The notes: generated by a model from the letters alone, not told the origin. Positions 5,166-47,995 are shown, counted from the stretch's first letter. The stretch is DNA of 64,000 nucleotides from a bacterium (GCA_018700055.1 JABISL010000050.1:99946-163945); one strand, 5' to 3'. Translations and numbers: made by a program.

Positions 5166-6669
5166 CAGCCTACTTATAGGGCTTTTTCTATGTAGCTCCC
5201 CTCTTTCCGCCTTTGAAATCGAAGGGCTGCCTTTGGTATTGGAAGCCAATGAAGTGGCGTATGACAATGACACCAAAGATGTGTTTGCTACAGAAAATGT
5301 TCGGATAGACTATGCTCCCTATGTCATCACCTCCGATTATTTCGAGTATGTTGCTCAAGATCGACGTCTACTTTTCAAAGGCAATGTGGTTGTTAAAGAA
5401 AAAGGTAGAACCTTTCAATCTAGGGCCTTTGAATTCGATTTTGATACCCAAAAAGGGATCGCACATGACATCAAATCTACTGTGGACGGCACTATCATTA
5501 AAGGAAAACGTTTATCTGTAACCGCCACTGAAACCACCGTCGATGAAGTAGGGTTTACCACCTGTAGTTTGGATGAACCACACTATGTTTTTCAAGCTAA
5601 TAAGGTCCGTATCTACCCCGAAACCGGTGATTTTGTCGCCAATCATAATACGGTCAATTTATTTGGGGCGCCTATTTTCTATTTCCCTACCTATGTCCAC
5701 AGCTCCAAATCCAGAACGGTGAAGCAAAACTCAACGATTCCAGAGTTTGGCTACAATCGTATAGACGGTACTTTTTTCAAACTTAACTATGCTTATTTTA
5801 TGTCGCCTCGTTCCAATGGCACGATATCTATAGGATCAACTACTTTTCGTGGCAACTTATACGGATTTAATCACCGCTTGGGACTGCACCCCGACCATCG
5901 TTTATTTATCAAAGCCTATGATGTTCAAGACACTGGGTTTGAAGGGGGATTAATCTATGAATGGGATCTTATGCGCCCCAAGGGCGGGACTTATGCTAAC
6001 AGTTTTTTTGATCAACTCTACTCCGTTTTTGCCACCAATGATCAAAGTCGAATGAGCTCTAATTTCACAGCACATTATGTCTATAATGAATCTATTAACT
6101 ATCATTTAGTGGATTACTTACCGATGGTTCAGTGGGACGTAGACCATATTCAACTTCCTTACGATTGGCAGCTCTCAACTGAGGTCTCATCCGGAGAGGT
6201 GCGCGACTCTCAAGCCAGTACCGATAGAAGTGAAGGGATTGGCGTTCTTAGTCATGAGTGGACTCTGACTGAAGACTGGTCCATGGCATCTACGTTTACC
6301 CAGTATCGAAGCTATTATGGGACAGGGGATCGATGGGAGCGTATATTGGGCACTCTAAGTTTTTCATATGAGTCGGCTCTTTTTAAGCCGGAGATCTCTT
6401 ACACCCGCTTATTTTCCGATACTGGAGGAAGCCCTTTTCTCTATGATTCCGAAAATGTCATCGCCTCTGATGAAATTGGCTTGAAACTTACTTCGAATTT
6501 GTGGGGTAAATATTTGGCTCTGGACGTCGATTATGATTTGAATGACCAATCTCTACGGGACGCCACTATAACCACCGGTCTCAAGCAGCATTGTTGGATG
6601 TTAATGGTGAGTTGGAACATGGTTTGGCAAGAATTTCGCTTGGGTGTTTCTGTTATTCCCCACGAATAG
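5101..6669 (+). CDS. LptD/OstA-like outer-membrane protein (OstA N-terminal domain), shorter than canonical LptD
   Basis: Long signal peptide (MSLDLKWLAVLCQRSLRSLLLSSLLIGLFLCSSPLSA) followed by an OstA-N-like region (VAYDNDTKDVFATENVRIDYAPYVITSDYFEY..LLFKGNVVV). The start at 5101 was chosen over 4954 because 4954..5100 lies inside dnaB. Confidence 0.5.
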   Translation: MSLDLKWLAVLCQRSLRSLLLSSLLIGLFLCSSPLSAFEIEGLPLVLEANEVAYDNDTKDVFATENVRIDYAPYVITSDYFEYVAQDRRLLFKGNVVVKEKGRTFQSRAFEFDFDTQKGIAHDIKSTVDGTIIKGKRLSVTATETTVDEVGFTTCSLDEPHYVFQANKVRIYPETGDFVANHNTVNLFGAPIFYFPTYVHSSKSRTVKQNSTIPEFGYNRIDGTFFKLNYAYFMSPRSNGTISIGSTTFRGNLYGFNHRLGLHPDHRLFIKAYDVQDTGFEGGLIYEWDLMRPKGGTYANSFFDQLYSVFATNDQSRMSSNFTAHYVYNESINYHLVDYLPMVQWDVDHIQLPYDWQLSTEVSSGEVRDSQASTDRSEGIGVLSHEWTLTEDWSMASTFTQYRSYYGTGDRWERILGTLSFSYESALFKPEISYTRLFSDTGGSPFLYDSENVIASDEIGLKLTSNLWGKYLALDVDYDLNDQSLRDATITTGLKQHCWMLMVSWNMVWQEFRLGVSVIPHE

Positions 6670-9001: not shown

Positions 9002-10354
9002 ATGAAGGTATTTCCCCCTACTTTTGTATCTTATAAGGTAATAGCAGCTTTTCCCGAAAGTTGTGTTTTCGCACTTAATCTATTAGATACCTGCTTAAAC
9101 CCTCCTCTCAAGGGTATTTTAAAATACCCTCATCGAGACTCTTCAGGGTCTCTCTCAAGCGCCAACACAACTGTCGCCGACAACACTTCTATGTCTTCTC
9201 GGGAGGGATTAGTCCTAGATGATGTATCTGATGTAAGCACTGAAGTTCTTTCTGAGTCGGGCGAATCTTTCAACGTCCCTGCCAAAGAGACTGAATTTTT
9301 ACCGAGTCCTAACGCAAAGGGACATAATGTTTTCTTTGGGGAAGACCTCATTGAGTCCGTTGATAATTATGCCAACCTCTATCCAGAATTATTTCGAAAA
9401 GATCCGACATTGATCTCCCCAACCTATTTTAGGTCGGACTTTTTCTGTGATGAGCTTAACTACGTTGGTGCAGATGTCACAGAATCGAAAGATGTCGTCC
9501 CCCCACAGTTACGCGTCGCTGAGGAACCCCTGCTACGGACTCCCTTTCAAAGGTCACGAAGTCAAAGTCATAACTTAAGTGATTTTATGACTCAATCAAA
9601 TATCGCTATCGCTCCTCCCCCCGCCCCAATACTACCTCAAGCCGAATTAGCACTAGGCAAACTAGTCAGCGCCTATAAGGAGTTTGCTAAGAATCATCCT
9701 GGCACTGACTTATCAAGTCGAGATTTACTCACCAATGTTTCCACAATGGCAAAAACGGCTGATGGATTGACTCAATTAGTTGCTCTTTCAGATCCTACTA
9801 TTGGGGACATATTGCATACCAAAGGACTCTCGCTAACGACTGATGATCAAGACAATGCTAGAAAGTGGTTGGCTGCCGTTGTCAAAATTGGAAAGGGTGG
9901 CGGTTTGGGAGAAACTCAGCTCAATCAATCACGGGCCATTTCATTCGATTCTATGAGAACGGCTATTACGAATATCCTCTTTCACTCGCCCTCTCAAAAA
10001 ACGTTTATATTCGACCTAAACTTGATCGCAAATACTGTAGAGGGATATAAGACTATTCTTATGACCCCCAGCTATTCCGAACTGTTTCATGAGGACTGTG
10101 AGTCCACGTTGTTAGATACTCCCGAAATGAGAGTCCAGTTTTTACACGCTGTCTCACAAATTGTTCGGATGAAAAGTGAGTCCACTACAGCCCTGATCCG
10201 TCAAAAAGGGTTCCAATCAACGCTAGCTACTGTTGTTACCCTCCTTACTAGTCTTGATAGGAAAGCAGACGAAATCGCTCCGATATTAGACACCATCCGA
10301 GCTAAATCCTCTACCTTGAATACAATATTAACTGAAACTTTTGGCTGCTTCTAA
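9002..10354 (+). CDS. Hypothetical protein, 450 aa, Ser/Pro-rich N-terminal half with no signal peptide
   Basis: Long ORF with consistent coding bias. No recognisable catalytic motif. Confidence 0.55.
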   Translation: MKVFPPTFVSYKVIAAFPESCVFALNLLDTCLNPPLKGILKYPHRDSSGSLSSANTTVADNTSMSSREGLVLDDVSDVSTEVLSESGESFNVPAKETEFLPSPNAKGHNVFFGEDLIESVDNYANLYPELFRKDPTLISPTYFRSDFFCDELNYVGADVTESKDVVPPQLRVAEEPLLRTPFQRSRSQSHNLSDFMTQSNIAIAPPPAPILPQAELALGKLVSAYKEFAKNHPGTDLSSRDLLTNVSTMAKTADGLTQLVALSDPTIGDILHTKGLSLTTDDQDNARKWLAAVVKIGKGGGLGETQLNQSRAISFDSMRTAITNILFHSPSQKTFIFDLNLIANTVEGYKTILMTPSYSELFHEDCESTLLDTPEMRVQFLHAVSQIVRMKSESTTALIRQKGFQSTLATVVTLLTSLDRKADEIAPILDTIRAKSSTLNTILTETFGCF

Positions 10355-10366
10355 ACGATATTTACT

Positions 10367-12220
10367 ATGAGTCATTTTTCCAGCTATATATCCCATTCCA
10401 GCAATGGGCGTTCGTTCGTCCCAGGGGGACTTTACGAAAATCAAGCGGAGAATCAGCCTATTGTACTCCCTCTGTCACAGTCTCAAAACAGATCGGCTCA
10501 GGCTGCAGCTCAACAAGCAACGAACGTTCCATCAGGGCAACGCCCTATTGTCCTACCTAGATCCAGGGCCGCTGCTTGGCAACCAGACTACCAACACCAT
10601 TCTCACCCCTTTCCTTTGCCACCTCATTTCCAACCGCCTAAAACGACTCCAGATTCTATTGCGCATCAAACTAAAAATGCCATTATCGACGCGCTGACGC
10701 CCCCTTACGTTCGCGATAAACTAGTGTCTTTACCACATCATTTTTCAACCTTAACACAGCTAGTTCACCACCTCCCTCTAAATGATCGAACTCTATTGTT
10801 ACGCTCAATTGATCAAACACTATCTACAGAGGAAGGGCGAAACTGTCTGACATCCTATCATTTTACTTCGCCTACGATAGCTTCTTTCTTAGCGACTCTG
10901 GGTCGAACCTTAGACCCTGCAGACCATTCTTTATTATCCCCCTCTATTGAGACTCTATCTCTATCCCCCGAAGGTCTAAAACAGCTCATTCATAAACCAT
11001 TTTTTACACCTCTATTCCAAAATAATCCCCAAAATTCTTTTATGTTTAATACCCCTGAAAAACGACAGATTATTCTACAAACACTCGGCGAGGCCTTTCA
11101 AACTGGATCATCTCACAGAGAGCGTTTCTCTCAAGCCCCCTTTAAAGACCTGGTTATTGAGATCGCAAAGTACACTAAAAAGAATACCCCCGAATTATTT
11201 AAGCCTATGAAGATTCATGTTCTACAGTTAGCGAATTCCGTTCCTGAGATTGGAGAAGCATTGCTACGAGCCGGTGTTATTCATCGTCACCAGCCGCCTG
11301 TTCAGGCGCCACCCTCCTCAGTAGCTGCAATTCGAAACAGTTTAATCCGTACCATTGAGAATAATCCCTCTCAGTCTATTTCTGATCAACCTCAGGAAAC
11401 TGCAGCACCTCCACTAACTCTTTCTGCTGCAATGCAGGCCTTGTTGGGGCCCCCAACTATTCGACCTTTAACTAGTTCTGCGCGCTCATCATCTAACACA
11501 CAGCCCTCTCATGCACTAAGAGCATCTCCTATTACTACGTCATCATCACATGAAGTTGTCCCACCGACACTCTCTCAAACAGAAATAGAAGCCCAACGAA
11601 ACAACTCTATTGATAGTGCTATTGAGAAGAGTGCTCGACACTTTAAAAACATAAAGAACTGTTGTCAGCATATCGTTAATTTTATTGTCTTATCGACTTT
11701 GGGGTTAGAAGAGCATGCCAATCGAATTCCTAAGAAACCATGTAACAATACCTATGATATTAAACATTATCCCACCCCCGTTAAAAGAGAAGGGGGGCTA
11801 CCTCAATACCTTGCGAATACTACTGAAGTCGTTAGTAATATTTCCTTAACACGTTATTCCCCATACGGAACGACGTGGACCATTGATTTGACAGGTGATG
11901 TCCCCGAAGAATCCTACCACCATCATACTCAGTCTATTGCAAAAGCATGGCCCTATTATTCTGTTGATAATGCTGACGACGTTTTGACAGAAATGTTACA
12001 AAAATATAATCATTGCTCATTCGTTATTGTTGAAATTGGGGCGTCTGGATCCCTAGGAGGTCATTCACTCTTGTGTGTTAAAAATGGATCATCTCTCTAT
12101 CTAATAAATAATGGGGCTAAAGTCCTTCAAAAATCCCCCTCTCACCTTGAACTATCCGTTTTCCTCAAAAAGGAAGATTTTAATGTTATGGGGTTAAGGG
12201 TGCTCCACAGCGAAACCTAA
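10367..12220 (+). CDS. Hypothetical protein, 617 aa, Pro/Gln/Ser-rich N-terminal region with a repeated PIVLP motif and a globular C-terminal ~200 aa
   Basis: Long ORF. Low-complexity effector-like N-terminus. The C-terminal region has a Cys..His..Asn spacing loosely reminiscent of papain-fold enzymes (weak). Confidence 0.55.
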   Translation: MSHFSSYISHSSNGRSFVPGGLYENQAENQPIVLPLSQSQNRSAQAAAQQATNVPSGQRPIVLPRSRAAAWQPDYQHHSHPFPLPPHFQPPKTTPDSIAHQTKNAIIDALTPPYVRDKLVSLPHHFSTLTQLVHHLPLNDRTLLLRSIDQTLSTEEGRNCLTSYHFTSPTIASFLATLGRTLDPADHSLLSPSIETLSLSPEGLKQLIHKPFFTPLFQNNPQNSFMFNTPEKRQIILQTLGEAFQTGSSHRERFSQAPFKDLVIEIAKYTKKNTPELFKPMKIHVLQLANSVPEIGEALLRAGVIHRHQPPVQAPPSSVAAIRNSLIRTIENNPSQSISDQPQETAAPPLTLSAAMQALLGPPTIRPLTSSARSSSNTQPSHALRASPITTSSSHEVVPPTLSQTEIEAQRNNSIDSAIEKSARHFKNIKNCCQHIVNFIVLSTLGLEEHANRIPKKPCNNTYDIKHYPTPVKREGGLPQYLANTTEVVSNISLTRYSPYGTTWTIDLTGDVPEESYHHHTQSIAKAWPYYSVDNADDVLTEMLQKYNHCSFVIVEIGASGSLGGHSLLCVKNGSSLYLINNGAKVLQKSPSHLELSVFLKKEDFNVMGLRVLHSET

Positions 12221-25449: not shown

Positions 25450-25525
25450 GCGGGATTAGCTCAGTTGGTAGAGCGCAACCTTGCCAAGGTTGAGGTCGTC
25501 GGTTCGAACCCGATATCCCGCTCCA
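25450..25525 (+). tRNA. tRNA-Gly (anticodon GCC)
   Basis: Folded manually into a cloverleaf: acceptor GCGGGAU/AUCCCGC, anticodon loop UUGCCAA, T-loop GGUUCGAACC, 3' CCA. Confidence 0.9.
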
Positions 25526-25557
25526 TTAGATTAGCTCCGCTTTGGCCTTCGGCGAAG

Positions 25558-25791
25558 ATGGAGCACTTGATGACTAACAAGCCAGATAATCTTACGTTAA
25601 GTGAAAAAATATGTGATGAAAAAGTTTTTTACCACTATATTGAATTTGACCATTTCAAAACATCCTTGAAAGATCAAAAACTGCGTTTCAAAGATATTGT
25701 TGATTTTGAAGATCGAGAGTTTCTTAAGAAGAAGAATCTAAACGGGACTATCGTTAATGGTGTTCATAAATTTTCTATTAACGAAATCTGA
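25558..25791 (+). CDS. Orphan small ORF in an AT-rich region downstream of tRNA-Gly (uncertain)
   Basis: ORF-track entry 25465..25791 is trimmed here to the first Met after the tRNA. No homology recognised. Confidence 0.25.
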   Translation: MEHLMTNKPDNLTLSEKICDEKVFYHYIEFDHFKTSLKDQKLRFKDIVDFEDREFLKKKNLNGTIVNGVHKFSINEI

Positions 25792-26081: not shown

Positions 26082-27191
26082 TTACCTCAAAAAGACAGTC
26101 GCAGCCTGGTCATAGAGATCAGGATTGGCAGGTAATGTATCCGATAGTGTCTTAAGTTGAGATTGCGCCGCTTTGTAGTCGTCTTCAGAAGAGATTATCG
26201 ATAAAATTTTGTTGGCTATTTTTTTGGGGCAAATATCATTCTGGCGATACTCAGGAACGACTTCGCTTCCCATAATAATGTTAGGTAACCCTATAAAAGG
26301 AAACTTGAATCTTAATAGGTACGTGACAATCAAATAGGAAATCGGCGAAAGGGCACCCATGATCACTTGAGGAATACCTAAAAGTGCCGTTCTGAGGGTC
26401 GCCGTTCCCGCAAAATTAACCACAAAATGGGCACGTGACTCCCAAGGTGTTTCAGAGTCCCACACTGCGATAATATCATCGTGGTTTTTCATAAGGTCCT
26501 CAACTATAGGACGCAGTCTGGTATTGGGACAAACTACCCAACATTTAATAGATTGGTCCGTACTTAATCGTTTGGCAATCTTGCACATCTGAGGGAACAA
26601 GCGTTTAATTTCGGTTTCTCTTGTTCCGGGATTAAAAATAATTACTTTTTGCTCATGTTTAGAGGGAAGTTTGGGATATTTTGGGGTTAGATCCAATGTC
26701 AGTGGGTGACCAAAATAATGACAGTTTGTGGCGCCTAACCCTTCATAAAATTTCCTCTCAGACTCAAATATTGTCACTATTTCGTTGCTGTAGCTAGCTA
26801 GCTTCCGACCCCCACGCTTGTCATTCCAAATCCAAAAATTGGGAGTAATGAGTGTGGATATTGAAATATTGAGCGCTTGCAATGTCTCAGCAATTGCCAA
26901 GTTCATATGCGGATAATCAATAATGATAGCCTTTCTAACGAAGCGTCCTTTTCCAAATTTATGTATCGTATCGAGAAGCTGCTTTTTTTTGTCCTTCTTA
27001 CCCCAGTTTTCGGTAATTCCCACAGCATGACTGTAAGCTGTTTCCATTAAAAAATCATCGGCAACGCCCTGCAGTTTGGCACCGCCAATCGCCGCTATTC
27101 GAGTGTTGGGAGACTTCTTTTTGATTGCCTTTACTAGCTCAGCTCCATAATGGTCTGATGACATTTCACCGGCAATAACCAGGATACTCAT
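26082..27191 (-). CDS. lpxB: Lipid-A-disaccharide synthase
   Basis: N-terminal ILVIAGEMSSDHYGAEL plus GT19-family layout. Confidence 0.85.
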   Translation of the reverse strand: MSILVIAGEMSSDHYGAELVKAIKKKSPNTRIAAIGGAKLQGVADDFLMETAYSHAVGITENWGKKDKKKQLLDTIHKFGKGRFVRKAIIIDYPHMNLAIAETLQALNISISTLITPNFWIWNDKRGGRKLASYSNEIVTIFESERKFYEGLGATNCHYFGHPLTLDLTPKYPKLPSKHEQKVIIFNPGTRETEIKRLFPQMCKIAKRLSTDQSIKCWVVCPNTRLRPIVEDLMKNHDDIIAVWDSETPWESRAHFVVNFAGTATLRTALLGIPQVIMGALSPISYLIVTYLLRFKFPFIGLPNIIMGSEVVPEYRQNDICPKKIANKILSIISSEDDYKAAQSQLKTLSDTLPANPDLYDQAATVFLR

Positions 27192-27193
27192 AT

Positions 27194-28453
27194 CTAGTCT
27201 GTTTCAGATTCTTCGATAGAGGTTTTTTTGGATATGCCTCGAGAAGATCCTTCCTTAAGGAACTCTATTAGCAATTTGATTTGATCGGTTTCACAAGCGC
27301 CTGTTTCGATTTCTTCCAATGCTTGTTTGATATTCATACTGGATCGATAGAGTAGTTTGTAGGCGTTTTTGAGTTCTTTTAACTCTGTCGCTGAGAGTCC
27401 TGCACGACGCAAGCCAACCACATTAAGATTGCGAACATACGCAGGGTTTCCATCACACAACATAAAGGGAGGGACATCTTGAATTAGTCGGGAATACCCG
27501 CCAGACATTGACCCGCGACCTACTCGAACGAATTGATGAACCCCGGTTAAACCACCAATTATCGCCTTATCATCAATCACCACATGGCCGCCAACATGCA
27601 CCATATTAGCTAACGTAGTACTGTTACCCACCACGCAATTGTGTCCAATATGAACATTGGTAAGGAACATATTGTCACTTCCGATTTGAGTGACTTCATT
27701 CTTGCCTGTAGCTCTATTAATCGTTACGTATTCACGAATTTGATTACGATCACCAATTACCACCCAAGATTTTTCGCCCTGATACTTCATGTCTTGTGGA
27801 CCAGATCCAATGACTGAGCCGAAATGAATATGGTTTTCTTCGCCAATCTTGGTCCATTTTTCAATATACACATGAGCTTCTATTCTGGTCTTGTCGCCAA
27901 TCTGAACGTTCTCACCAATGATACTATAAGGGCCAACTATGACGTCCTTTCCTAATATCGCGGTGGGATGAACCGATGCAGTTGGGTGAATCTGAGCCTT
28001 AGTAGGTTGCTGAGTAAGTGTAAAAAGAAGTCCGCCTTCACAAACAATCGCGTCGTTGCATAAGACTTTGCCTTCAAATGTGATGGTTTCTTCTTTGCGT
28101 TTGGTTACTTCTACTTCTATACGAAGTTGATCGCCAGGATTTACATCGCGATGAAACTCTATCTTCTGCGCTTGGGAAAATGTTGGGCGTTGGCCAGACA
28201 AGTCCTTGTTACTCAATAGTATTGTAGTAGCCGCCTGCGTCATGGTTTCTAAGATCAATGCACCGGACATTACGGGACTAGACATTCCATCATCCTGGAA
28301 AAAAGGATCGTTACTACTTACAGATTTGATTGCAATAATACGTTCATTGGGAACCAATTCTAAAATACGATCTAGTAAAAGATGAGGGGTGCGTTGCGAT
28401 AAAACATCTTGCACGTCTGTTGCTGTCATGGGCTTATTATAGTTGATTGCCAC
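27194..28453 (-). CDS. lpxA: Fusion protein: FabZ-like hotdog domain (catalytic His replaced) plus UDP-GlcNAc acyltransferase LpxA
   Basis: N-terminal ~150 aa aligns to FabZ (TPHLLLDRILEL..NDPFFQDDGMSSPVMSGALILETMTQAA), but GHFPG reads DDGMS. The C-terminal left-handed beta-helix has hexapeptide repeats and the LpxA catalytic His context (VHIGHNCVVGN). Confidence 0.8.
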   Translation of the reverse strand: MAINYNKPMTATDVQDVLSQRTPHLLLDRILELVPNERIIAIKSVSSNDPFFQDDGMSSPVMSGALILETMTQAATTILLSNKDLSGQRPTFSQAQKIEFHRDVNPGDQLRIEVEVTKRKEETITFEGKVLCNDAIVCEGGLLFTLTQQPTKAQIHPTASVHPTAILGKDVIVGPYSIIGENVQIGDKTRIEAHVYIEKWTKIGEENHIHFGSVIGSGPQDMKYQGEKSWVVIGDRNQIREYVTINRATGKNEVTQIGSDNMFLTNVHIGHNCVVGNSTTLANMVHVGGHVVIDDKAIIGGLTGVHQFVRVGRGSMSGGYSRLIQDVPPFMLCDGNPAYVRNLNVVGLRRAGLSATELKELKNAYKLLYRSSMNIKQALEEIETGACETDQIKLLIEFLKEGSSRGISKKTSIEESETD

Positions 28454-28737
28454 TATACGGGGTAGTGAAAACCATTTTCCGTCACAATAAGCTTGTCTTC
28501 TACCGTCTGCATTTGAGCCATTGGGGAGTTCTTGCGTTTGCGACGCATAAGCTCATTACGGTATTTGGTGTAGCCTGTCTCTTGAGCACCAATATTGCCA
28601 CTAACCGCCGTTACAGCATCAAAAAGCAGCATTTGATTCTGCAATACCTGATCAAACCCACCTGAACTGTTGAGTTGCGGAATGGATCGTGTAGATTGGG
28701 CTTCCCATAGTGATTTAATTTTTTTGAGTTGTTTCAT
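28453..28737 (-). CDS. Hypothetical protein, 94 aa
   Basis: ORF only. Confidence 0.3.
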   Translation of the reverse strand: MKQLKKIKSLWEAQSTRSIPQLNSSGGFDQVLQNQMLLFDAVTAVSGNIGAQETGYTKYRNELMRRKRKNSPMAQMQTVEDKLIVTENGFHYPV

Positions 28738-28821: not shown

Positions 28822-29655
28822 CTAACTATATCTGCGTCGTTTCCCTGCTGGTTTGTCCTCAAAACTTTCTTTTAAAGACTCTATTATAATCTTGATTACT
28901 TTTTTTTGATCTTCGGCAGAAATCTTCCCATAGGTCCCTTCTCCCGACAATATTTCTTTTGCTTGTTCTACAGTGTCCTCGGCAGTCATCGAGGGCATTA
29001 TCTCTCTCATAATCTGTGCTATTGCCGAATACGGTGAGACAGATCCAGCATAAGTCTTCTCGTTAAAGTTAAACAGTAAAAAACTTATCACTTCAGTATA
29101 TAAAGGGTGTCGGTAAGTCTCTGATAGGCTCCCCGAGTCAATAACAGCTTTTAAAAACTCCGAAACCTCTTCTGCATTCATATCCTCTATATATGGCGAA
29201 ACTCTGGCTTTACTTATATCTGTTACCAATTCAAACCTTTCTGTTTCACCAATCACCCCTAGTTCAATGACTACATTTAAAAAAGATTTCATTTCCATCA
29301 TTTTTTCGATCACTGTTTCGTGAGGTTCCCTCATCATTGCATCTAGCGCAATAAAAACAACTTCTGTTCCGTATTCCTTAAATACACCTTTATCAGTGAG
29401 GTCCTTCAGCAGTTCCCCCAAAAGGTCTATCGTGCCGACATGGTTTTCTATCAACTCAGAAAGAGACTCCCAGTCGGTTTCTGTTGGAGAACCCTCCTCT
29501 TCGCAGGGCGCATCTATATTAATTAGGCTCTCAAGAAATAATAACCACTCGTTTTCCTCTGAAGTATCATCTAAAGAATCAGCCGAAGACTTTGAGGAAC
29601 TTTGTTCAAATGCTATTACTTTATATAACGTTGTTATAGAAGAAAGATTTATCAT
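28822..29655 (-). CDS. Hypothetical acidic protein, 277 aa
   Basis: Long ORF. Strongly acidic (Glu/Asp-rich). No motif recognised. Confidence 0.5.
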   Translation of the reverse strand: MINLSSITTLYKVIAFEQSSSKSSADSLDDTSEENEWLLFLESLINIDAPCEEEGSPTETDWESLSELIENHVGTIDLLGELLKDLTDKGVFKEYGTEVVFIALDAMMREPHETVIEKMMEMKSFLNVVIELGVIGETERFELVTDISKARVSPYIEDMNAEEVSEFLKAVIDSGSLSETYRHPLYTEVISFLLFNFNEKTYAGSVSPYSAIAQIMREIMPSMTAEDTVEQAKEILSGEGTYGKISAEDQKKVIKIIIESLKESFEDKPAGKRRRYS

Positions 29656-29770
29656 AATATTCGTCCTTTTATTAATTTTCAGTACATATTAAGTATTTTA
29701 TATCTTATTTTACAATTATTTAGTCTTTTATACACTTATTTTATTAGTCGCGATTTTTCAACCAAAACTG

Positions 29771-29822
29771 TCACCCTCTTTTTTGAAAAGTTTCTTAATG
29801 TCGATTTTTGAGGCAAGGGTGG
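29771..29822. repeat. 52-bp direct-repeat copy 1 with 7-bp inverted termini (ccaccct..agggtgg) and an internal cttttttgaaaag palindrome
   Basis: Exact duplicate of 29909..29960, seen in sequence. Confidence 0.8.
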
Positions 29823-29908
29823 GCGGATTGCATTAGATTCACTTCGTTCTCAACGAAGATGAATCACGGAATCCCGAATCAAGTTCGATGATTCCTCAAC
29901 TAAAGCTG

Positions 29909-29960
29909 CCACCCTCTTTTTTGAAAAGTTTCTTAATGTCGATTTTTGAGGCAAGGGTGG
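29909..29960. repeat. 52-bp direct-repeat copy 2
   Basis: Identical to copy 1. The period is 138 bp. Confidence 0.8.
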
Positions 29961-39273: not shown

Positions 39274-39350
<77 letters not shown>

Positions 39351-39441
39351 ATAGTTAGGGTCGAAATTGATTGGGGGACTGATGCGGGGAGTTTTTCTTC
39401 TACCCTTTTTCTACCCGGATGCATTTAACTAGGAGGCTGTT

Positions 39442-39786: not shown

Positions 39787-40242
39787 CTATTCAACGATTT
39801 TACATGTCCCATTATATTGTGACGTCATTGGATCAATTAATGTTAGATGTCGTGAATAGACCATTGGGTATTGTTGGGTATTTGTTAAAGGCTTTGAAAA
39901 TACAGTAAGTATATTAATCCCACCCCCAGTATATTCAGCAAAAGTAATGCCCTTGCTAATTTTGATTGCCTGAACATCTGTTGATCCACTTCCGATCAAC
40001 CGAGCCGTGCCATTTTTAAGGTCGATAGAATCAAATATTAACGTGGAATCCTCCTTAGACTTAGACCATGTGCTGGCTTTCATACTGGGCCCGTTCTTAT
40101 CCCAAACAGTGAACATTCCCTTGCCTATCTGGCATTTTATTGTTGTCGCTGTTATTAATTCATTGCCTTTAATATTCCCTAAACAGACATTTGAAAAGAC
40201 TATTAATAGAACCAAAACGAGTTTCGTTTTCCATATATCCAT
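39787..40242 (-). CDS. Secreted hypothetical protein (signal peptide), element cargo
   Basis: The internal Met gives a typical signal peptide (MDIWKTKLVLVLLIVFSNVCLG). No homology recognised. Confidence 0.4.
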   Translation of the reverse strand: MDIWKTKLVLVLLIVFSNVCLGNIKGNELITATTIKCQIGKGMFTVWDKNGPSMKASTWSKSKEDSTLIFDSIDLKNGTARLIGSGSTDVQAIKISKGITFAEYTGGGINILTVFSKPLTNTQQYPMVYSRHLTLIDPMTSQYNGTCKIVE

Positions 40243-40298
40243 ACCCCTGCGCCTCATCAAGAGCGGCGCATCAGTGGGTGTGGGGATGTGTGTAAACA

Positions 40299-40502
40299 CT
40301 AACAGTGCATATCCTTCTCAATAGTGATCTTGTAGCCAATCACCTTAAGGATTTCTTTTAGCTCGGCATATTTAATGGAGCCGCGAGCGATTTTTTGGTT
40401 GAGGTTTTGGGTGCTGGTGCCAAGTAATTCGGCAACCTTCGCGACAGTAAATCCTGCCCCGTAAATAATCCCTTTAATCTCGTTTTTGATTTCGTCTGTC
40501 AT
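40299..40502 (-). CDS. XRE/Cro-like helix-turn-helix DNA-binding protein, 67 aa
   Basis: HTH region VAKVAELLGTSTQNLNQKIARGS. Confidence 0.6.
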   Translation of the reverse strand: MTDEIKNEIKGIIYGAGFTVAKVAELLGTSTQNLNQKIARGSIKYAELKEILKVIGYKITIEKDMHC

Positions 40503-40749: not shown

Positions 40750-40947
40750 ATGGAACTATTAACCAAACAAGAACTAGCCAACTATCTAAAGGTACGGGTC
40801 AAAACAGTCTGTTACCTTCTCTATTCCAAACAACTACCCAAAATCAAAGTGGGCAGAGAATACCGATTCATCAAAACAGACATCGATAAATGGATCGCAT
40901 CGCAACGACAAGAAGTACGAACCTACTCCTTCAAAGGCATCCATTAA
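40750..40947 (+). CDS. xis: Excisionase / AlpA-like HTH (Xis)
   Basis: MELLTKQELANYLKVRVKTVCYLLYSKQLPKIKVGREYRF matches the excisionase HTH_17 pattern. TAATG overlap with the int start. Confidence 0.6.
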   Translation: MELLTKQELANYLKVRVKTVCYLLYSKQLPKIKVGREYRFIKTDIDKWIASQRQEVRTYSFKGIH

Positions 40948-42065
40948 TGGCCTTCCTTAAAGAAGTCCCAGGAAAAAACAAACCCACCTTTTACATCATC
41001 TACAAACAACCGGTACGCCAACCGAACGGTACCGTTATTAATAAAAAGAAATGGCTCAACGTAGGGCACGTTAAATCAAACGCCCACCAAGCACTACGAG
41101 CCTTTAAGAAAGAGTACGACGCCAACCGAAGTAAGTTCACACTCACGCAAACAGTCCTCTTCTCTACCTTCGTAAACGAGTCATTCCTCCCCTGGTGCAA
41201 ATCCAGAAAAAACGAAAAAGAATATGCCAGGACCTGTCATTCGATATGTTTGATGGTGGGGTTCTTTGGGCCCATTCGACTCAATGACCTTACGACAAAA
41301 ATGATTGAAGACTATGTCACATGGCGAAAAGAACGAAAGACACGTGACAAGAGTATTTCCAATCGAACAGTCAATATTGACCTCATTTACCTATCCCAAT
41401 GCTACAACAAAGCTATCGAATGGGAAGTTGTAGAGAATAATCCCTGCAAAAAAGTATCGAGATTAAAGGAGCCCAAAAGTCGTGTGCGTTTCTTTAGTGT
41501 TGAAGAAATAGGCCATCTCATCTTTGCGGCGAACCCGTATATCAAACGGTTCTTGATCGTCGGTCTCTCTACGGGCATGCGACATAGTGAGTTGTTGAAT
41601 CTAAAGCTCTCTCAGATCGATATGGTTAACCAAACCATCCACATCACTAACGATGAGACGTTTCAGACGAAGAGTGGGAAGAATCGGGATATTCCCATCT
41701 CGTTCTTTCTCATGGATCACCTCGTCCAAATGATGAAAACATGGGCCCACCCTATCACCTGTGAAGTGCGACCTCGCACGTCAGCGCAATCGACTTATTT
41801 GTTCTGCAACGAGAAGGGAGAACCTCTCAAGAGCTTTAAGCGATCGTTCTATTCATTGCTTGCCCATGCCAATGTCTCAAACGCCACCGTCCACACCATG
41901 CGCCATACATTCGCCTCTCATCTCGTGATGAAAGGCGTGAGTATCCGAACGGTTCAAGAGCTGCTTGGACACTCTTCAATCAGTGTTACGGAGATGTATG
42001 CCCATTTGAGCAGTGGGTTTAAGAAGAAGGAGATTGATTTGCTGGATTACGGGGGCTTGGGCTAA
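40947..42065 (+). CDS. int: Tyrosine-type site-specific integrase
   Basis: C-terminal catalytic region (HTMRHTFASHLVMKGVSIRTVQELLGHSSISVTEMYAHL) with R..H..R..Y signature residues. Confidence 0.85.
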   Translation: MAFLKEVPGKNKPTFYIIYKQPVRQPNGTVINKKKWLNVGHVKSNAHQALRAFKKEYDANRSKFTLTQTVLFSTFVNESFLPWCKSRKNEKEYARTCHSICLMVGFFGPIRLNDLTTKMIEDYVTWRKERKTRDKSISNRTVNIDLIYLSQCYNKAIEWEVVENNPCKKVSRLKEPKSRVRFFSVEEIGHLIFAANPYIKRFLIVGLSTGMRHSELLNLKLSQIDMVNQTIHITNDETFQTKSGKNRDIPISFFLMDHLVQMMKTWAHPITCEVRPRTSAQSTYLFCNEKGEPLKSFKRSFYSLLAHANVSNATVHTMRHTFASHLVMKGVSIRTVQELLGHSSISVTEMYAHLSSGFKKKEIDLLDYGGLG

Positions 42066-42202: not shown

Positions 42203-43237
42203 ATGAAAACTACAAAAGAAAACCAAATACTGATTTTTAAATCCGACACCGGACCGGAAGTCGATGTGACACTTATTGATGAAAACATATGGCTCACACA
42301 AGCGCAAATGGCGGAGTTGTTTGAGAGAACAAGAGAAAATATAACCTTGCACATTAAAAATATTTTTAATGAGGAAGAATTGGATGAAAAAGTGGTATGT
42401 AAGGAATCCTTACATACCACTCAACATGGTGCTTTAAAGAAAAAAACACAAACTAGCACCGTCAAACTCTACAATCTTGATGTCATCATTTCAGTGGGTT
42501 ACCGCGTTAAATCCAAACGTGGGACGCAGTTCAGGATATGGGCCAATCGGGTTCTCAAGGACTATTTGATTCAAGGGTATGCCGTCAATGAGAATAAGCT
42601 CAAAGGCCAGACCCAAAAGATTAAACAGCTTGAAGCGACGATACAATCAATCGTGTCAGCGTCAGACCAAAAAGAGTTAACGAATACTGAGGCCAAGGGT
42701 GTATTGAGGGTAATTCAGGACTATACCCTGGCATTGGACCTATTGGACCAATACGACCATCAAAAACTTCAAATAGAGAATACAAATAAACAGACCGGAA
42801 CTGTGATTAGCTATGAAGAGGCGATGAATGCCATCGCGACATTAGAGCAGAAGTTCCGAACCGATGGGGAATCTGTAGGGTTCTTTGGAAAGGAAAAAGA
42901 CGATTCATTCCGCAGTTCCATTGCTACGATATACCAGACCTTTGATCAGAAAGAGCTATACCCAAGCATCGAAGAGAAGGCAGCGCATCTCTTGTATTTC
43001 GTTATCAAGAACCACTCGTTTGTTGATGGGAATAAGCGAATCGCAGCGTTTGTGTTTGTTTGGTTCTTAGAACGAAATGATTACCTATATGCCCCTGATG
43101 GTAGACGCAGGATCGAAGATAACGGTCTTGTTGCACTCTGCTTATTGGTAGCTCATAGCAAACCGGATGAAAAAGACGTCTTCGTTAAGTTGATCGTGAA
43201 CTTGATTAATAAGCGGAATGGAGGGAACAACGGATAG
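42203..43237 (+). CDS. RhuM-family N-terminal domain fused to Doc/Fic-family domain (HxFx(D/E)GNKR motif)
   Basis: RhuM-like N-terminus (ITLHIKNIFNEEELDE..YNLDVIISVGYRVKSKRGTQFRIWANRVLKDYLIQG). Doc-type motif HSFVDGNKRIAAFVF near the C-terminus. Confidence 0.75.
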   Translation: MKTTKENQILIFKSDTGPEVDVTLIDENIWLTQAQMAELFERTRENITLHIKNIFNEEELDEKVVCKESLHTTQHGALKKKTQTSTVKLYNLDVIISVGYRVKSKRGTQFRIWANRVLKDYLIQGYAVNENKLKGQTQKIKQLEATIQSIVSASDQKELTNTEAKGVLRVIQDYTLALDLLDQYDHQKLQIENTNKQTGTVISYEEAMNAIATLEQKFRTDGESVGFFGKEKDDSFRSSIATIYQTFDQKELYPSIEEKAAHLLYFVIKNHSFVDGNKRIAAFVFVWFLERNDYLYAPDGRRRIEDNGLVALCLLVAHSKPDEKDVFVKLIVNLINKRNGGNNG

Positions 43238-43783: not shown

Positions 43784-43831
43784 AGGACTTCTAATCCGTA
43801 GGTCAGTGGTTCGAATCTACTCGGGCGCACC
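43784..43831. repeat. attR core (displaced partial tRNA-Arg 3' end)
   Basis: Exact duplicate of 39303..39350. No 5' half of a tRNA is present. Confidence 0.85.
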
Positions 43832-43901
43832 AATTAGATAAGATTCACTTGCTCTACGCCCAAGATGAATCACGGAAACTCGAAATAAATTCGATCCTAT
43901 A

Positions 43902-44606
43902 TTAAGCCGAAGGGGTTCTTTTTTCGTTTGAAAGAGCTAATGTTTGCAGAACTCTTAAGTACTCATCGGGCATATAAGATGACCCGTCACCGGCAGAACA
44001 CGCCTCATTGTCATATAGAAATGGTACATCAAAGTGTTTTGACCAATCCAATACCATTTTCGACGCCCGGTGTCTCTCTTTTCCATTACCAACAATCAAT
44101 GTCTGGCCGTCCTTCTGATGGTCATAGTCCTTCAATGGCATTAGTCGATCTGTAGTAAAAATAAGCATGTTTTCTTGGTCTTGATCTTTAACAATATCAG
44201 CTGGATTCAGCAGAATGCCATTATAGTCTTGCTCTACAGGAACCTCCCTTTGTACCCGATGCCCGATAAGTTTGTCGTTAGAATCAAAAACAGGTGTGCC
44301 AAATCCCCCTAAGTTGGCATGTGCGGGGACAAACATTGATACCATCTGTACGTCTCCCTGAGAAGGAATCCCTTCTAAAAGGTCTAAGACCTTCTCTTCA
44401 TTGAAAAGGTCCCAATTAGATTGATTTCCTGTAAGCAGTTGATGCGTTGTAAAATTCCCTCGTTCACTACTGAGGAAGGCATTCAAATCGGCCAATTCTT
44501 GAATTTTTTGGTGTGATGTATAGTCAAAGTCCATGATAACTCTACGGTCATCTAGGCTTACGATAAGGTAATCGTGAAAGGCCTCACCTTTTTCATTTAA
44601 GGACAT
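43902..44606 (-). CDS. C-terminal fragment carrying the His/Asp part of a transglutaminase-like cysteine-protease core; probably the downstream half of the preceding gene, split by a frameshift
   Basis: AFHDYLIVSLDDRRVIMDFDYT resembles the TGase-like H..(G)W..FDPT segment. 10-nt out-of-frame overlap with the upstream ORF at an A6 run. Confidence 0.5.
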   Translation of the reverse strand: MSLNEKGEAFHDYLIVSLDDRRVIMDFDYTSHQKIQELADLNAFLSSERGNFTTHQLLTGNQSNWDLFNEEKVLDLLEGIPSQGDVQMVSMFVPAHANLGGFGTPVFDSNDKLIGHRVQREVPVEQDYNGILLNPADIVKDQDQENMLIFTTDRLMPLKDYDHQKDGQTLIVGNGKERHRASKMVLDWSKHFDVPFLYDNEACSAGDGSSYMPDEYLRVLQTLALSNEKRTPSA

Positions 44607-47600
44607 CTTTTTTCTGTTTCAAACCCTAACGCCGAAAAGATAATCCGTCCTAGCTCAGCCTGATGACGACAAACGCCCTTTTGAAAATAAAGCGAGTCAT
44701 ACAAAAGGTTTCCTGTCTTCTGGTCAGCCGGACTATCCATCTCCATAAACCCGTCAAAGTAAGTAAAGATACCTGCCAACATATCGGTCTGTGACACCCC
44801 ATCCTGAATGAGTATATTTAATGCGATTAAAAGACTCTCTTTTGTATAGTTCGCAGGCACTAACTTGGCATGTATAAATCGTTTAAGAATGTCATTCAGA
44901 TCGATCAATTCTTCATTCAATATATCCAAATTGCGTTGGCCTTCTTGCTTAAACAACGGAGTTGATCGCAACTCAGAATAGAGAGGCAGTGGATCGTCGA
45001 ATGTTACATCTACGGTTAATGACTGTGACTTTGCGTTAAAGATTACTCGTTCTTTTCTATCAAACATCTGCTCACATTCATTTGGTGGGCACTGTAAGGC
45101 GTAACCTGCTTCGTTATACAACGACATGGTGGCCTGGTTACTTCCCATAAGACTAGGGACTAGAAGCGTTTCGCCTGGCGCCAAAGTTGCACTAATCGTG
45201 TTTGGAGTAGTCACGCGTTCAGGTATTTGGGACATCTTAACCATTAAGTCAGCCGCGTACTCCAAAAAAAGTGCCTTCGTGCCAGTCCAATTCCTTTTGG
45301 GCGTAGCCTCTCCAGGTATTAGGTCATATCGACGTGCTGCAGCCGCCTTCTCTTCCATCTGATTCAGATTACTAAGAGTTAAAAATGAGCCTTCACGACG
45401 TGCCACAGCCGCTTTCCTTTCCGTCTGTATCTTCTCTTTTATCGGATTCACATTACCTAGGGGAGATAAGGGGGCTTGAGGGGGGGTAGGAGGAACGTTT
45501 CCAGGTAATGAGTCATAACGACGTGACGCAGCCACTTGCTCTTCCATCTCTGCCTTCTCTTCCATCTGATTCAGGTTATCAAGGGATAAGGGCGTTGGAA
45601 GACCGTTTCCAGGTGTCGCTGGAATCGCCTCTCTTTCAAATTTAACCGGCTTTAGCTGAATTGTTTTTCTGTGCCTAAAAAAAACGGCGTTTAATAAATG
45701 GTGTGCCGATTTTTCTGCACGTTCCAACCCTTCTTCTTGAATCTTCTGTCCCAGTTTTTTGGCAAACAAGATCAATTGTCTGGGGGTCGGAGGGTTATTA
45801 ACATCTTGAATATTCTCGTCGATGTAGAGGTCGGCGAATACGACTACTGCCCACTTCAGGGGGACCTCATATTTGGCACTTGCCCAGTCTATTAATCCCT
45901 TCATGTACTCCGTTCTATCCCTCTTACCCGTGGGTGACGTAAGATGTACCGTTGAAAAAGTCTGCTCATTTAATTTAAAGCGATTACTAATTTGAGACTG
46001 CGCGTTTTGAGTCCCAATGATTTTGATGTTTTTACCTTGTATAAAATGAAATATTTCATTGAGCTGTGCGGGTGAGATTAAATTAATTTCCGATATTTGA
46101 AAAACAATATTCTTGCCTGGGTGTTGTTCATGAGTATCGACGATTTGTTCCAGTAGTGGCTGATCTGGTGCCGAAGTAATTTCTTCGACATGAATATTGT
46201 CAGCGTTCTGGCCTAGCATCTTTAAAAAGTGCTTAGTAAGCGCATCTTTTCCAAGACCGGGGGCGCCTTCTAATATAAGCCATTGTGGGTCATTCGTTGC
46301 AAACTCAGAAAGGGCGTCAAATACCTCTCTAGCGATATCATTATCCATATATAAAGAACTGTCATTAAAATAATCTTGCTTGAGAAGCTCAGGGCTAACT
46401 ATATTCAGGTGCGTAGGGGTCGATGACTTGTGTGTCGGTGCGTGTGTTTGAATGCCTTTTACTTGATACCAGTTGTCACGATATTGCAGTTTCCATTTCC
46501 CCATATGTTTCTTAAAATTGGCAACAATATCTAACTTGGGTTTTGTTGGGATCCTTATGACTTGGTCTTTGAGATACTCTTCAATTTTCTGTGTGTCTTC
46601 ATTATGGATCCCTTGTTGAGACAACTGGCGGTCTATGTTTTTTCCAAAGTCACTCAAATACTGATATATCACGACATCAGATTCTTTAGTCGAATGTTTT
46701 TGATATACCTCGTCTGGAAGACGGGTTAATAAATATCGATGCGGCGGTTTGTCTGTAGATGAAACAGCGTTTAATTCACCATCGCTTTGGACTACAACAA
46801 GTTCGTTTTGAGACACGTTGTGTTTACTCTTCTGTTCTAGTGTAATTATATCTAATTCTAGTGCCTGAACGGTCGTTATACGTGATAATTGTTTATACCG
46901 TAATTGGTCCGCTCCTAACTCATCGGTCTTAGGTGAAGATGGCTTATTTTGGTACTGCAGTGAATACTCATCTATATAATCACTGTCAATTCGATTTTGG
47001 ACATCTTTGGTTAGGTCATTATAGTGGCCTACAACTATGATTTTAACGTGGTCGGAAATCTTTCTGCCTAACCAGCGTCGATCTTGTAATAAGTCATTGT
47101 GTCCCGAATTAATATCATCTGTAGGGATAATAAGTACTGTAGGAAGTGTTGTGCCATACAATGTTTGCTGGGTATCCAGATCTTGGCCTGTCTCTTCTGT
47201 ATGTTGCTTGTACAAACTACTCGGTGTAATCCTTTGAATGTTTTTTGACCCTAGATCCCTTAAAAATTGAGGTAGAAATTGGTCTGGGTTTGTTTCTATA
47301 AACGTAAACTCAAAGGAAAGTAAGTCAGAAAGTTTAAAAGACTCATTTGCCATCACATCCTCACGACTTACAAACGGAGTGTGTTTCATCACCTGTTCTG
47401 TGAAGCTAGGCGACCACTTCTCACAAGGAATATGTTTTATAAGGGCGTTAACTACGTTTATAGGTATAGTCATATGGAAAGAGTAGGACTTCTGATTATG
47501 ATTAATAACCTTGATAACATCCGTAAAGTCGGCATGCTGATTAATGGCCTCGGCAACCTCCTTGTTATCTAATAATTCCTGGGAGAATTTGGATAAGTCA

Positions 47601-47995
47601 CGATACCCGCCTTCTATGGCCTTAACTGCGAACGGTACATTATCTCGCGTAATCACCAGGGATATTTCAGGCCAATACTCAGGGTGTTGAGTAATCACTT
47701 TCATCCAAAAATCCCGATCTTCCCGAAGAGGGCTCTTTATCATGGTTCGCCATTTTATGTCTTTAGATATAACTGCTAAGGCAAGGTCCTCATTACTCCT
47801 AAGTCTATTAGAAGCGAGAAAGAAAGAGTGGGGGTCTTTCTGAATTGCAGCCAGAACACACTCATACCTATCCCTATCGCTGTCTGGTAGCGGGGTTCTG
47901 TGCGATAATTCCTTACAGCCTGGTTGATGAACGGGTTCTCCACGGACTTGAGTCGCGGCATATGTTGTTGCTGCTAATGTTATTAAACGAATCAC
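44597..47995 (-). CDS. Large secreted protein (1,132 aa) with degenerate P-loop (GAPGLGKD), internal ~45-aa tandem repeat, and C-terminal TGase-like Cys motif (GVCRHQ) truncated by the stop
   Basis: Signal peptide. P-loop-like motif. Repeats (LDNLNQMEEKA..RRYD..PG). The TGase-like catalytic Cys motif lies ~8 aa before the stop. Confidence 0.6.
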   Translation of the reverse strand: MIRLITLAATTYAATQVRGEPVHQPGCKELSHRTPLPDSDRDRYECVLAAIQKDPHSFFLASNRLRSNEDLALAVISKDIKWRTMIKSPLREDRDFWMKVITQHPEYWPEISLVITRDNVPFAVKAIEGGYRDLSKFSQELLDNKEVAEAINQHADFTDVIKVINHNQKSYSFHMTIPINVVNALIKHIPCEKWSPSFTEQVMKHTPFVSREDVMANESFKLSDLLSFEFTFIETNPDQFLPQFLRDLGSKNIQRITPSSLYKQHTEETGQDLDTQQTLYGTTLPTVLIIPTDDINSGHNDLLQDRRWLGRKISDHVKIIVVGHYNDLTKDVQNRIDSDYIDEYSLQYQNKPSSPKTDELGADQLRYKQLSRITTVQALELDIITLEQKSKHNVSQNELVVVQSDGELNAVSSTDKPPHRYLLTRLPDEVYQKHSTKESDVVIYQYLSDFGKNIDRQLSQQGIHNEDTQKIEEYLKDQVIRIPTKPKLDIVANFKKHMGKWKLQYRDNWYQVKGIQTHAPTHKSSTPTHLNIVSPELLKQDYFNDSSLYMDNDIAREVFDALSEFATNDPQWLILEGAPGLGKDALTKHFLKMLGQNADNIHVEEITSAPDQPLLEQIVDTHEQHPGKNIVFQISEINLISPAQLNEIFHFIQGKNIKIIGTQNAQSQISNRFKLNEQTFSTVHLTSPTGKRDRTEYMKGLIDWASAKYEVPLKWAVVVFADLYIDENIQDVNNPPTPRQLILFAKKLGQKIQEEGLERAEKSAHHLLNAVFFRHRKTIQLKPVKFEREAIPATPGNGLPTPLSLDNLNQMEEKAEMEEQVAASRRYDSLPGNVPPTPPQAPLSPLGNVNPIKEKIQTERKAAVARREGSFLTLSNLNQMEEKAAAARRYDLIPGEATPKRNWTGTKALFLEYAADLMVKMSQIPERVTTPNTISATLAPGETLLVPSLMGSNQATMSLYNEAGYALQCPPNECEQMFDRKERVIFNAKSQSLTVDVTFDDPLPLYSELRSTPLFKQEGQRNLDILNEELIDLNDILKRFIHAKLVPANYTKESLLIALNILIQDGVSQTDMLAGIFTYFDGFMEMDSPADQKTGNLLYDSLYFQKGVCRHQAELGRIIFSALGFETEKRCP

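Follow-up and report, generated by a model that had tools for sequence, protein, structure and literature searches.

The balance between FabZ and LpxA determines how much phospholipid is made relative to lipopolysaccharide, and E. coli keeps it under tight control via LapB, FtsH and LpxC. FabZ is a hexamer, arranged as a trimer of dimers, whereas LpxA is a trimer. In mycobacteria, the non-catalytic hotdog subunits HadA and HadC are partners of the catalytic HadB, whose substrate pocket they shape. Here, we analyse a bacterial gene in which a FabZ-like hotdog domain without the catalytic His is joined in one open reading frame (ORF) to LpxA; it lies in a stretch of 64,000 nt (GCA_018700055.1 JABISL010000050.1:99946-163945), the whole of which we call the window. 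The closest described systems are the gene fusions of lpxC and fabZ in Bacteroidetes, Chlorobi and Verrucomicrobia (PMC3087551) and the hub centred on LapB in E. coli, which joins FabZ, LpxA, LpxC and LpxD non-covalently (PMC13477621). The FabZ active site combines His58 of one monomer with Glu72' of the other, as described for Helicobacter pylori, where Arg110 contacts the acyl carrier protein (ACP) and phosphopantetheine and has been called indispensable for ACP binding (PMC5143422). In the literature we found no description of a FabZ-LpxA fusion protein, 'fabZ-lpxA' occurring only as a notation for operons or plasmids, and no bifunctional FabZ/LpxA model was among the NCBIfam matches of the window protein. 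Both domains belong to textbook families; the fusion architecture is apparently undescribed, and the window protein is a catalytically degenerate member of it.

The fusion gene is a minus-strand ORF that starts with GTG and runs through 419 codons without an internal stop. Most gene callers place the start at Met9 (ATG at 28427-28429), which gives a protein of 411 aa, and the GTG shares one base with the stop codon of an upstream 94-aa ORF. The protein is identical to NCBI entry MBT5856477.1, and two independent ENA assemblies (contigs L081 and L082) contain the gene with 100% DNA identity. Because the ORF is uninterrupted and its DNA identical in both assemblies, neither the architecture nor the odd residues are an assembly or frameshift artefact; a missed stop codon, which the initial annotation had named as a way in which the fusion might prove false, is ruled out on the same grounds.

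The initial annotation recognized a FabZ-type hotdog domain that has lost the catalytic His and kept the Glu, and the searches bear this out. Residues 20-139 match the Pfam FabA-like family PF07977 (1.3e-20, 73.9 bits against a cut-off of 23), and residues 12-145 reach 109.8 bits against the NCBIfam FabZ model NF000582, slightly below the cut-off of 113; the FabZ model TIGR01750 gives 102.4 bits and does not reach its cut-off of 155.15. The top PDB sequence match of the domain is E. coli FabZ 6n3p (4.4e-19). In this alignment the window side of the catalytic region reads NDPFFQDDGMSSPVMSGALILETMTQA, and a shorter stretch of the window protein facing FabZ reads FFQDDGMSSPVMSGALILETMTQ. Both here and in the family alignment the catalytic His is replaced by Asp55, GHFP having become DDGM within the motif QDDGMSSP, and Glu69 in LILETMTQ, where the central helix begins, occupies the position of the catalytic Glu. 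The MPG motif and the surroundings of GHFP are degraded as well. Compared with E. coli FabZ 6n3p and the FabZ-ACP complex of H. pylori, the window domain shares the fold, the Glu, K43/N44, the PGDQ motif and G134, but it carries Asp in place of His54/His58, Thr in place of the gatekeeper Tyr100 and His in place of Arg110, and it is fused rather than a free hexamer. The last two equivalences come from a hand alignment to H. pylori FabZ, in which Arg110 corresponds to His101 and Lys129 to Lys120 of the window protein. Scored against individual proteins, the domain does best with the FabZ halves of its own fusion family (up to 119 bits), followed by stand-alone FabZ (up to 103 bits). A better-fitting hotdog subfamily, which the initial annotation had regarded as a possible refutation, was rejected: FabZ/FabA tops the Pfam, NCBIfam and PDB sequence searches and the fold searches, and none fits better in the scoring of the domain.

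The C-terminal half appears from its sequence to be a working LpxA. Residues 152-410 score 352.4 bits against the LpxA equivalog NF003657 (cut-off 226) and 314.1 bits against TIGR01852 (cut-off 231.05), and Pfam finds Hexapep (2.4e-23) and the LpxA C-terminal domain PF13720 (6.2e-26). The residues Q73, D74, K76, H122, H125, H144, H160, N198 and R204 of E. coli LpxA have their equivalents in Q220, D221, K223, H268, His271, H290, H306, N344 and R350 of the window protein; in the E. coli sequence used as the reference, every position number checked landed on the expected residue. As a family sample we used the 120 relatives listed in a protein collection, which are 45-59% identical to the window protein. 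In all 120, Q73, D74, H122, H125, N198 and R204 (E. coli numbering) are invariant, while H144 and H160 are kept in 117 and K76 in 107. With both equivalogs above their cut-offs and the key residues all present, the one-ORF fusion to an intact LpxA with its catalytic His stands as originally proposed.

An AlphaFold2 (AF2) monomer model built on the 120 family sequences has a mean predicted local distance difference test score (pLDDT) of 85.5, with mostly at least 95 over residues 30-148 of the hotdog and values down to 64 in residues 151-160, the least confident internal stretch. In Foldseek searches the N-terminal half superposes on FabZ chains with template modelling (TM) scores of 0.85-0.93 (all target-normalised), including E. 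coli FabZ 6n3p_B (E 2.7e-12, TM 0.89, 30% identity), and the C-terminal half on solved LpxA chains with TM scores of 0.84-0.92 at 36-42% identity. No PDB entry in this search spanned both halves. In the model, then, the hotdog fold of the N-terminal domain is retained.

As in LpxC/FabZ (NF009667), a FabZ hotdog shares one polypeptide with an enzyme that acts early in lipid A synthesis, and the fusion is one of neighbours in the lpxD-lpxC-fabZ-lpxA-lpxB cluster. The partner in the window is LpxA, however, the FabZ part is N-terminal instead of C-terminal, and its His is lost. The window protein matches NF009667 only via the FabZ part (profile positions 319-462), with 104.3 bits against a cut-off of 465, in agreement with the initial annotation, which had set this protein apart from LpxC::FabZ. 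The LpxC domain that precedes FabZ in that fusion is absent here, and the 64-kb window contains no LpxC-like ORF.

The two-domain architecture of ~410 aa is present in 120 of 120 listed relatives. Where a source is named, it is Candidatus Margulisiibacteriota/Marinamargulisbacteria or an unclassified marine metagenome-assembled genome (MAG); the closest distinct listed relative is only 59% identical. We further followed the distribution in species-representative genomes, which were scanned and the ORFs then checked with home-made hidden Markov models (HMMs). A single-ORF fusion was confined to nine loci (L001-L009) from Marinamargulisbacteria, UBP8 and unclassified MAGs, so that the phylogenetic survey suggested in the initial annotation identifies the fusion as a conserved family trait of Margulisiibacteriota/Marinamargulisbacteria-type MAGs. 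In the same scan, fabZ and lpxA are adjacent but separate genes in Cyanobacteria, Nitrospira and others, whereas in Omnitrophota and Planctomycetes a separate lpxA comes after lpxD and lpxC::fabZ. Because other phyla keep fabZ and lpxA as adjacent separate genes, the fusion probably arose from ancestral neighbours in this order. The genomes with separate genes have the same order and the same two proteins, which match the window protein over its full length with an identity of 36-44%. They differ in the stop codon between the genes, often with a gap of a few nt, and in a presumably intact FabZ, while the window has one ORF, a FabZ half that appears to be dead and no lpxC or lpxD nearby. The proteins are named 'LpxA' or 'hypothetical protein' in the databases, and the papers on Margulisbacteria that we found do not discuss lipid A; fatty acids figure there only as products of fermentation or substrates of catabolism, without reference to their synthesis.

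The window protein fits the layout of its family, which consists of ~400-440 aa with FabZ, a linker with Pro150, and LpxA, followed immediately by lpxB. The linker has ~8 residues and is conserved, with Pro150 in 96% of the members that contain the catalytic His and in 79% of those that lack it (His-less), and lpxB comes directly after the fusion in 4/4 contexts checked (the window and three relatives). The His-containing fusions P0002, P0030, P0064 and P0079 share the architecture, linker, length and lpxB neighbour of the window protein at 45-59% identity. They keep FFQGHFP together with the basic and tunnel residues and are presumably bifunctional, in contrast to the window protein with its DDGM and a faster-evolving N-terminal domain. 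The residues R111 and E113 (PGDQLRxE) were considered as a signature specific to the fusion and rejected, as most retrieved stand-alone FabZ carry the motif.

A search with the home-made HMMs, which covered the 64-kb window and, in 12 related loci, the DNA up to 10 kb from the fusion, found no second fabZ, no lpxC and no lpxD. Genes of type II fatty acid synthesis were found neither among the 35 window ORFs (Pfam) nor among the called genes with precomputed Pfam matches, which include ~8 kb past the left end of the window. Protein searches with the FabZ domain yielded nothing but stand-alone FabZ, all of it from other phyla or from unnamed sources; as none was attributable to Margulisiibacteria, they are uninformative on a paralogue. 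The 149-aa query of the N-terminal domain yielded only 74 candidates, from which the identical full-length protein (P0001) and all fusion proteins were missing; since long multi-domain targets were apparently missed, absence from the lists of this short-query word search weighs little.

Within the family, 92 of 120 members keep the FFQGHF motif and 28 are His-less, with 15 different substitutions or gaps. The position of the His is taken by S, Q, D, N, R, A and others in these 28, Asp not being conserved; P0005, the nearest relative by identity of the LpxA half, has Gln, and no replacement His or Asp is conserved at other columns. On a neighbour-joining tree of the LpxA half alone, Fitch parsimony gives 11 changes of the His state (9-14 over 30 bootstraps) compared with ~25 for shuffled states. 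The window protein falls within a mostly His-less clade, and other His-less groups are scattered over the tree. Read in this way, the loss of the His is secondary and recurrent, and the window protein is a degenerated family member, not a purpose-built binding module.

To compare the FabZ halves at equal divergence of LpxA, we restricted the analysis to pairs with 55-65% identity in the LpxA half (~59%). Here, the FabZ halves are 51% identical in His-containing pairs and 32% identical in His-less pairs, against 6.5% expected by chance. The columns relaxed in His-less members lie around the active site (P19, G54, H55, F56, P60, M62, L66 and I67) and include L80, R88, G128, A130 and V137 as well as the tunnel mouth. 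The frequency of K or R falls from 0.91 in His-containing to 0.39 in His-less members at position 21, from 0.92 to 0.36 at position 88, from 0.51 to 0.14 at position 101 and from 0.51 to 0.21 at position 125. About twenty columns remain 75-100% conserved in the His-less members; D28, K43, N44, F52, P63, Q73, the stretch P106-G107-D108-Q109, R111, E113 and G134 are kept at 82-100%. All 28 of them (28/28) have a full-length N-terminal domain. The pattern points to a pseudoenzyme, which has lost catalysis but whose fold remains under a constraint that is weaker yet real.

We therefore favour, with a probability of roughly 55%, an active LpxA that carries a pseudo-dehydratase kept for a non-catalytic, most likely architectural, role. 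A non-catalytic role is suggested because the N-terminal domain remains full-length and under purifying selection despite its degraded catalytic motifs. By this account the dehydratase activity would have been lost, the domain would serve a structural purpose, and the cell would possess another dehydratase or be independent of one. Adjacent fabZ and lpxA genes would have fused in an ancestor of the Margulisiibacteriota/Marinamargulisbacteria-type lineage. The LpxA half would move the (R)-3-hydroxyacyl chain from acyl-ACP onto UDP-GlcNAc as the opening reaction of lipid A synthesis, with lpxB next in the same operon, and the N-terminal half would no longer be able to dehydrate 3-hydroxyacyl-ACP. 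The hotdog domains may dimerise or hexamerise like FabZ and link LpxA trimers into a larger assembly, for which D3 symmetry, with the hotdogs at the core and an LpxA trimer capping either end, would be geometrically natural; alternatively, the hotdog domain may simply be needed for folding and stability of the fused protein. HadA and HadC are likewise hotdog proteins of the dehydratase lineage that are retained without the catalytic residues, but these pair with the catalytic HadB, whereas the window domain is fused to an acyltransferase and has no known catalytic partner.

Several points weigh against a pseudo-dehydratase with an architectural role. LpxA of other bacteria trimerises alone, so a scaffold is not obviously needed, and the AF2 model is of the monomer only, with an uncertain domain orientation (predicted TM score 0.65; linker pLDDT 64). 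Another dehydratase was found neither in the 64-kb window, nor in the ~8 kb of left flank, nor within at most 10 kb in relatives. The N-terminal domain may persist in part for mechanical reasons, because it is hard to lose without losing the translation start. Furthermore, the position of the catalytic Glu is still acidic in 26 of the 28 His-less members (21 Glu, 5 Asp), which hints that part of the active site still matters. This retention, with the neighbouring L66 and I67 relaxed, would fit a role as half of a site: because FabZ sites join His and Glu of different monomers, a composite of His58 and Glu72' being documented (PMC5143422), the dead domain could, like HadA and HadC with HadB, form a heterodimer with an intact FabZ encoded separately, supply the Glu of its one working site and tether the dehydratase to LpxA. 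The recurrent loss of the His also implies another source of a dehydratase. Still, we regard such a heterodimer as quite improbable, with no stand-alone fabZ in the window, the left flank or within 10 kb in relatives and none attributed to Margulisiibacteria in the FabZ-domain protein searches; the Glu, being at the start of the central helix, may be kept for structure alone.

The initial annotation had suggested that the fusion may hold or deliver 3-hydroxyacyl-ACP for LpxA. In such a substrate-holding module, the tunnel of the dead domain would bind (R)-3-hydroxyacyl-ACP without dehydration, and the domain would hand it to LpxA or shield it from FabZ and in this way commit the substrate to lipid A. 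LpxA and FabZ share this one substrate at the branch point of lipid A and phospholipid (PMC3087551; PMC13477621), and the retained hotdog fold, Glu and Q73 and the short, conserved linker would suit such a function. Several features lean against it: the tunnel mouth and the conserved basic columns 21, 88, 101 and 125 are relaxed in His-less members, the hand-aligned equivalent of H. pylori Arg110 at position 101 is His, and a net charge of -7 (mean of -2.5 in His-containing members) is ill-suited to docking the acidic ACP. The highly varied replacements of the His moreover suggest loss of function rather than redesign. The sequence of the window domain thus leans against ACP docking or holding, and we consider a holding module rather unlikely. 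Decay without any function would go further; the domain would be kept only as the upstream in-frame part of an essential LpxA, where frameshifts and large deletions would be lethal. Such a remnant would account for the clearly faster evolution of His-less domains, the recurrent loss of the His and the scores of the window domain below the curated FabZ cut-offs, but it is unlikely given the 32% identity of His-less pairs compared with 6.5% by chance, the roughly twenty conserved columns, the full-length domain in every His-less member and the confident hotdog fold predicted by AF2. It is highly improbable that the domain is still an enzyme, with Asp55 and Glu69 running another chemistry, either as a slow dehydratase or as an acyl-thioester hydrolase like the Asp/Glu hotdog thioesterases. 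The Asp is located at the former site of the catalytic His, and Pfam reports a weak match to the 4HBT thioesterase family over residues 61-134 (3.6e-5, 24.4 bits, cut-off 20.6). However, this Asp is not conserved among the 28 His-less members (P0005 has Gln), no substitute His or Asp is conserved elsewhere, and a thioesterase joined to LpxA would destroy LpxA's own substrate.

Returning to the pseudo-dehydratase, we tentatively suggest that the FabZ domain has a second, non-catalytic job, either as the hexameric core of a D3 particle with two LpxA trimers or in a Glu-paired composite site with a free FabZ. Such a job would explain why the His was lost about ten times and the domain was never dropped. 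The fusion would then be a covalent form of the phospholipid/lipid A branch-point control that E. coli achieves via LapB. The LapB hub likewise couples physically two enzymes that compete for (R)-3-hydroxyacyl-ACP, but its coupling is transient, works via a scaffold and involves an active FabZ, whereas the coupling in the window protein is covalent and the FabZ part is probably dead.

Table 1. Coordinates of the fusion gene, its domains and key codons, and the adjoining lpxB in the window.
Feature	Position	Strand	Length or basis
Whole ORF: FabZ-like domain, short linker, LpxA	27194..28453	-	419 aa from GTG / 411 aa from ATG
FabZ-like hotdog, catalytically degenerate (predicted), residues ~10-148	28010..28426	-	Pfam, NCBIfam, PDB, AF2, Foldseek
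Asp55 codon GAT, site of the FabZ catalytic His (E. coli His54/H. pylori His58)	28289..28291	-	alignments
Glu69 codon GAA, FabZ catalytic Glu kept (E. coli Glu68/H. pylori Glu72)	28247..28249	-	alignments
Inter-domain linker QPTKAQ, residues ~149-154	27992..28009	-	family alignment, pLDDT dip
LpxA half, residues 152-410, left-handed beta-helix and C-terminal helical domain	27224..28000	-	NCBIfam, Pfam, Foldseek
His271 codon CAC, equivalent of the E. coli LpxA catalytic base His125	27641..27643	-	family alignment
lpxB, lipid-A-disaccharide synthase, starting 2 nt downstream of the fusion	26082..27191	-	Pfam LpxB 4.2e-51

Upstream of the fusion, the 94-aa ORF (28453-28737) and a 277-aa ORF (28822-29655), both on the minus strand and without a Pfam match, stand where lpxD and lpxC sit in other phyla. 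The relative P0117 lacks both ORFs, and the His-less P0101 (GCA_964521915.1) has an unannotated 286-aa gene at that place. Between the 277-aa ORF and an AddB-like gene lie two direct repeats of ~71 nt (29752-29822 and 29890-29960) that are ~93% identical; Tandem Repeats Finder reported nothing at 29752-29960. The ENA contig L081, otherwise 99.8-100% identical, lacks one 71-nt copy and the spacer (138 nt), and the copy number of this repeat therefore varies between assemblies. On the other side of lpxB, a tRNA-Gly(gcc) gene (25450-25525) contains the start of a 108-aa ORF (25465-25791), which was called by one gene caller and is probably spurious.

Elsewhere in the window, the 3' 50 nt (39303-39352) of a tRNA-Arg(tct) gene at 39274-39350 are perfectly repeated at 43785-43834. 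The insert of ~4.5 kb between the repeats encodes a tyrosine integrase (40890-42065, plus strand), a RhuM/Fic-domain protein (42203-43237, plus strand) and a 170-aa ORF without a Pfam match (39787-40299, minus strand), and resembles a small integrated element bounded by att sites. A 3587-aa ORF (53165-63928, minus strand) has no Pfam match at E <= 0.001 and no exact match in the gene-position index. Immediately upstream of it, the opposite strand encodes an M4 thermolysin-like peptidase that carries fn3 and FlgD-Ig domains (49124-52243), as well as a 303-aa ORF that gave no matches. Further long ORFs with little or no Pfam signal are located within 4954-6669, 9002-12220 and 44597-47995; they comprise 571 aa (overlapping the end of dnaB, 478 aa according to the gene caller), 450 aa, 617 aa and 1132 aa (a DUF4116 repeat only).

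For the reconstruction of metabolism in Margulisiibacteria, the labels 'LpxA' and 'hypothetical protein' mean that FabZ is missed where the protein contains the catalytic His and, in His-less members, wrongly credited. Because the organisms are uncultured, the practical reach of these observations is modest until the protein is expressed. A natural covalent FabZ-LpxA nevertheless provides gene-fusion evidence that both enzymes can act together as a single physical unit. That the chemistry was repeatedly lost while the domain was kept amounts to a natural experiment that separates the catalysis of FabZ from a structural or regulatory role.

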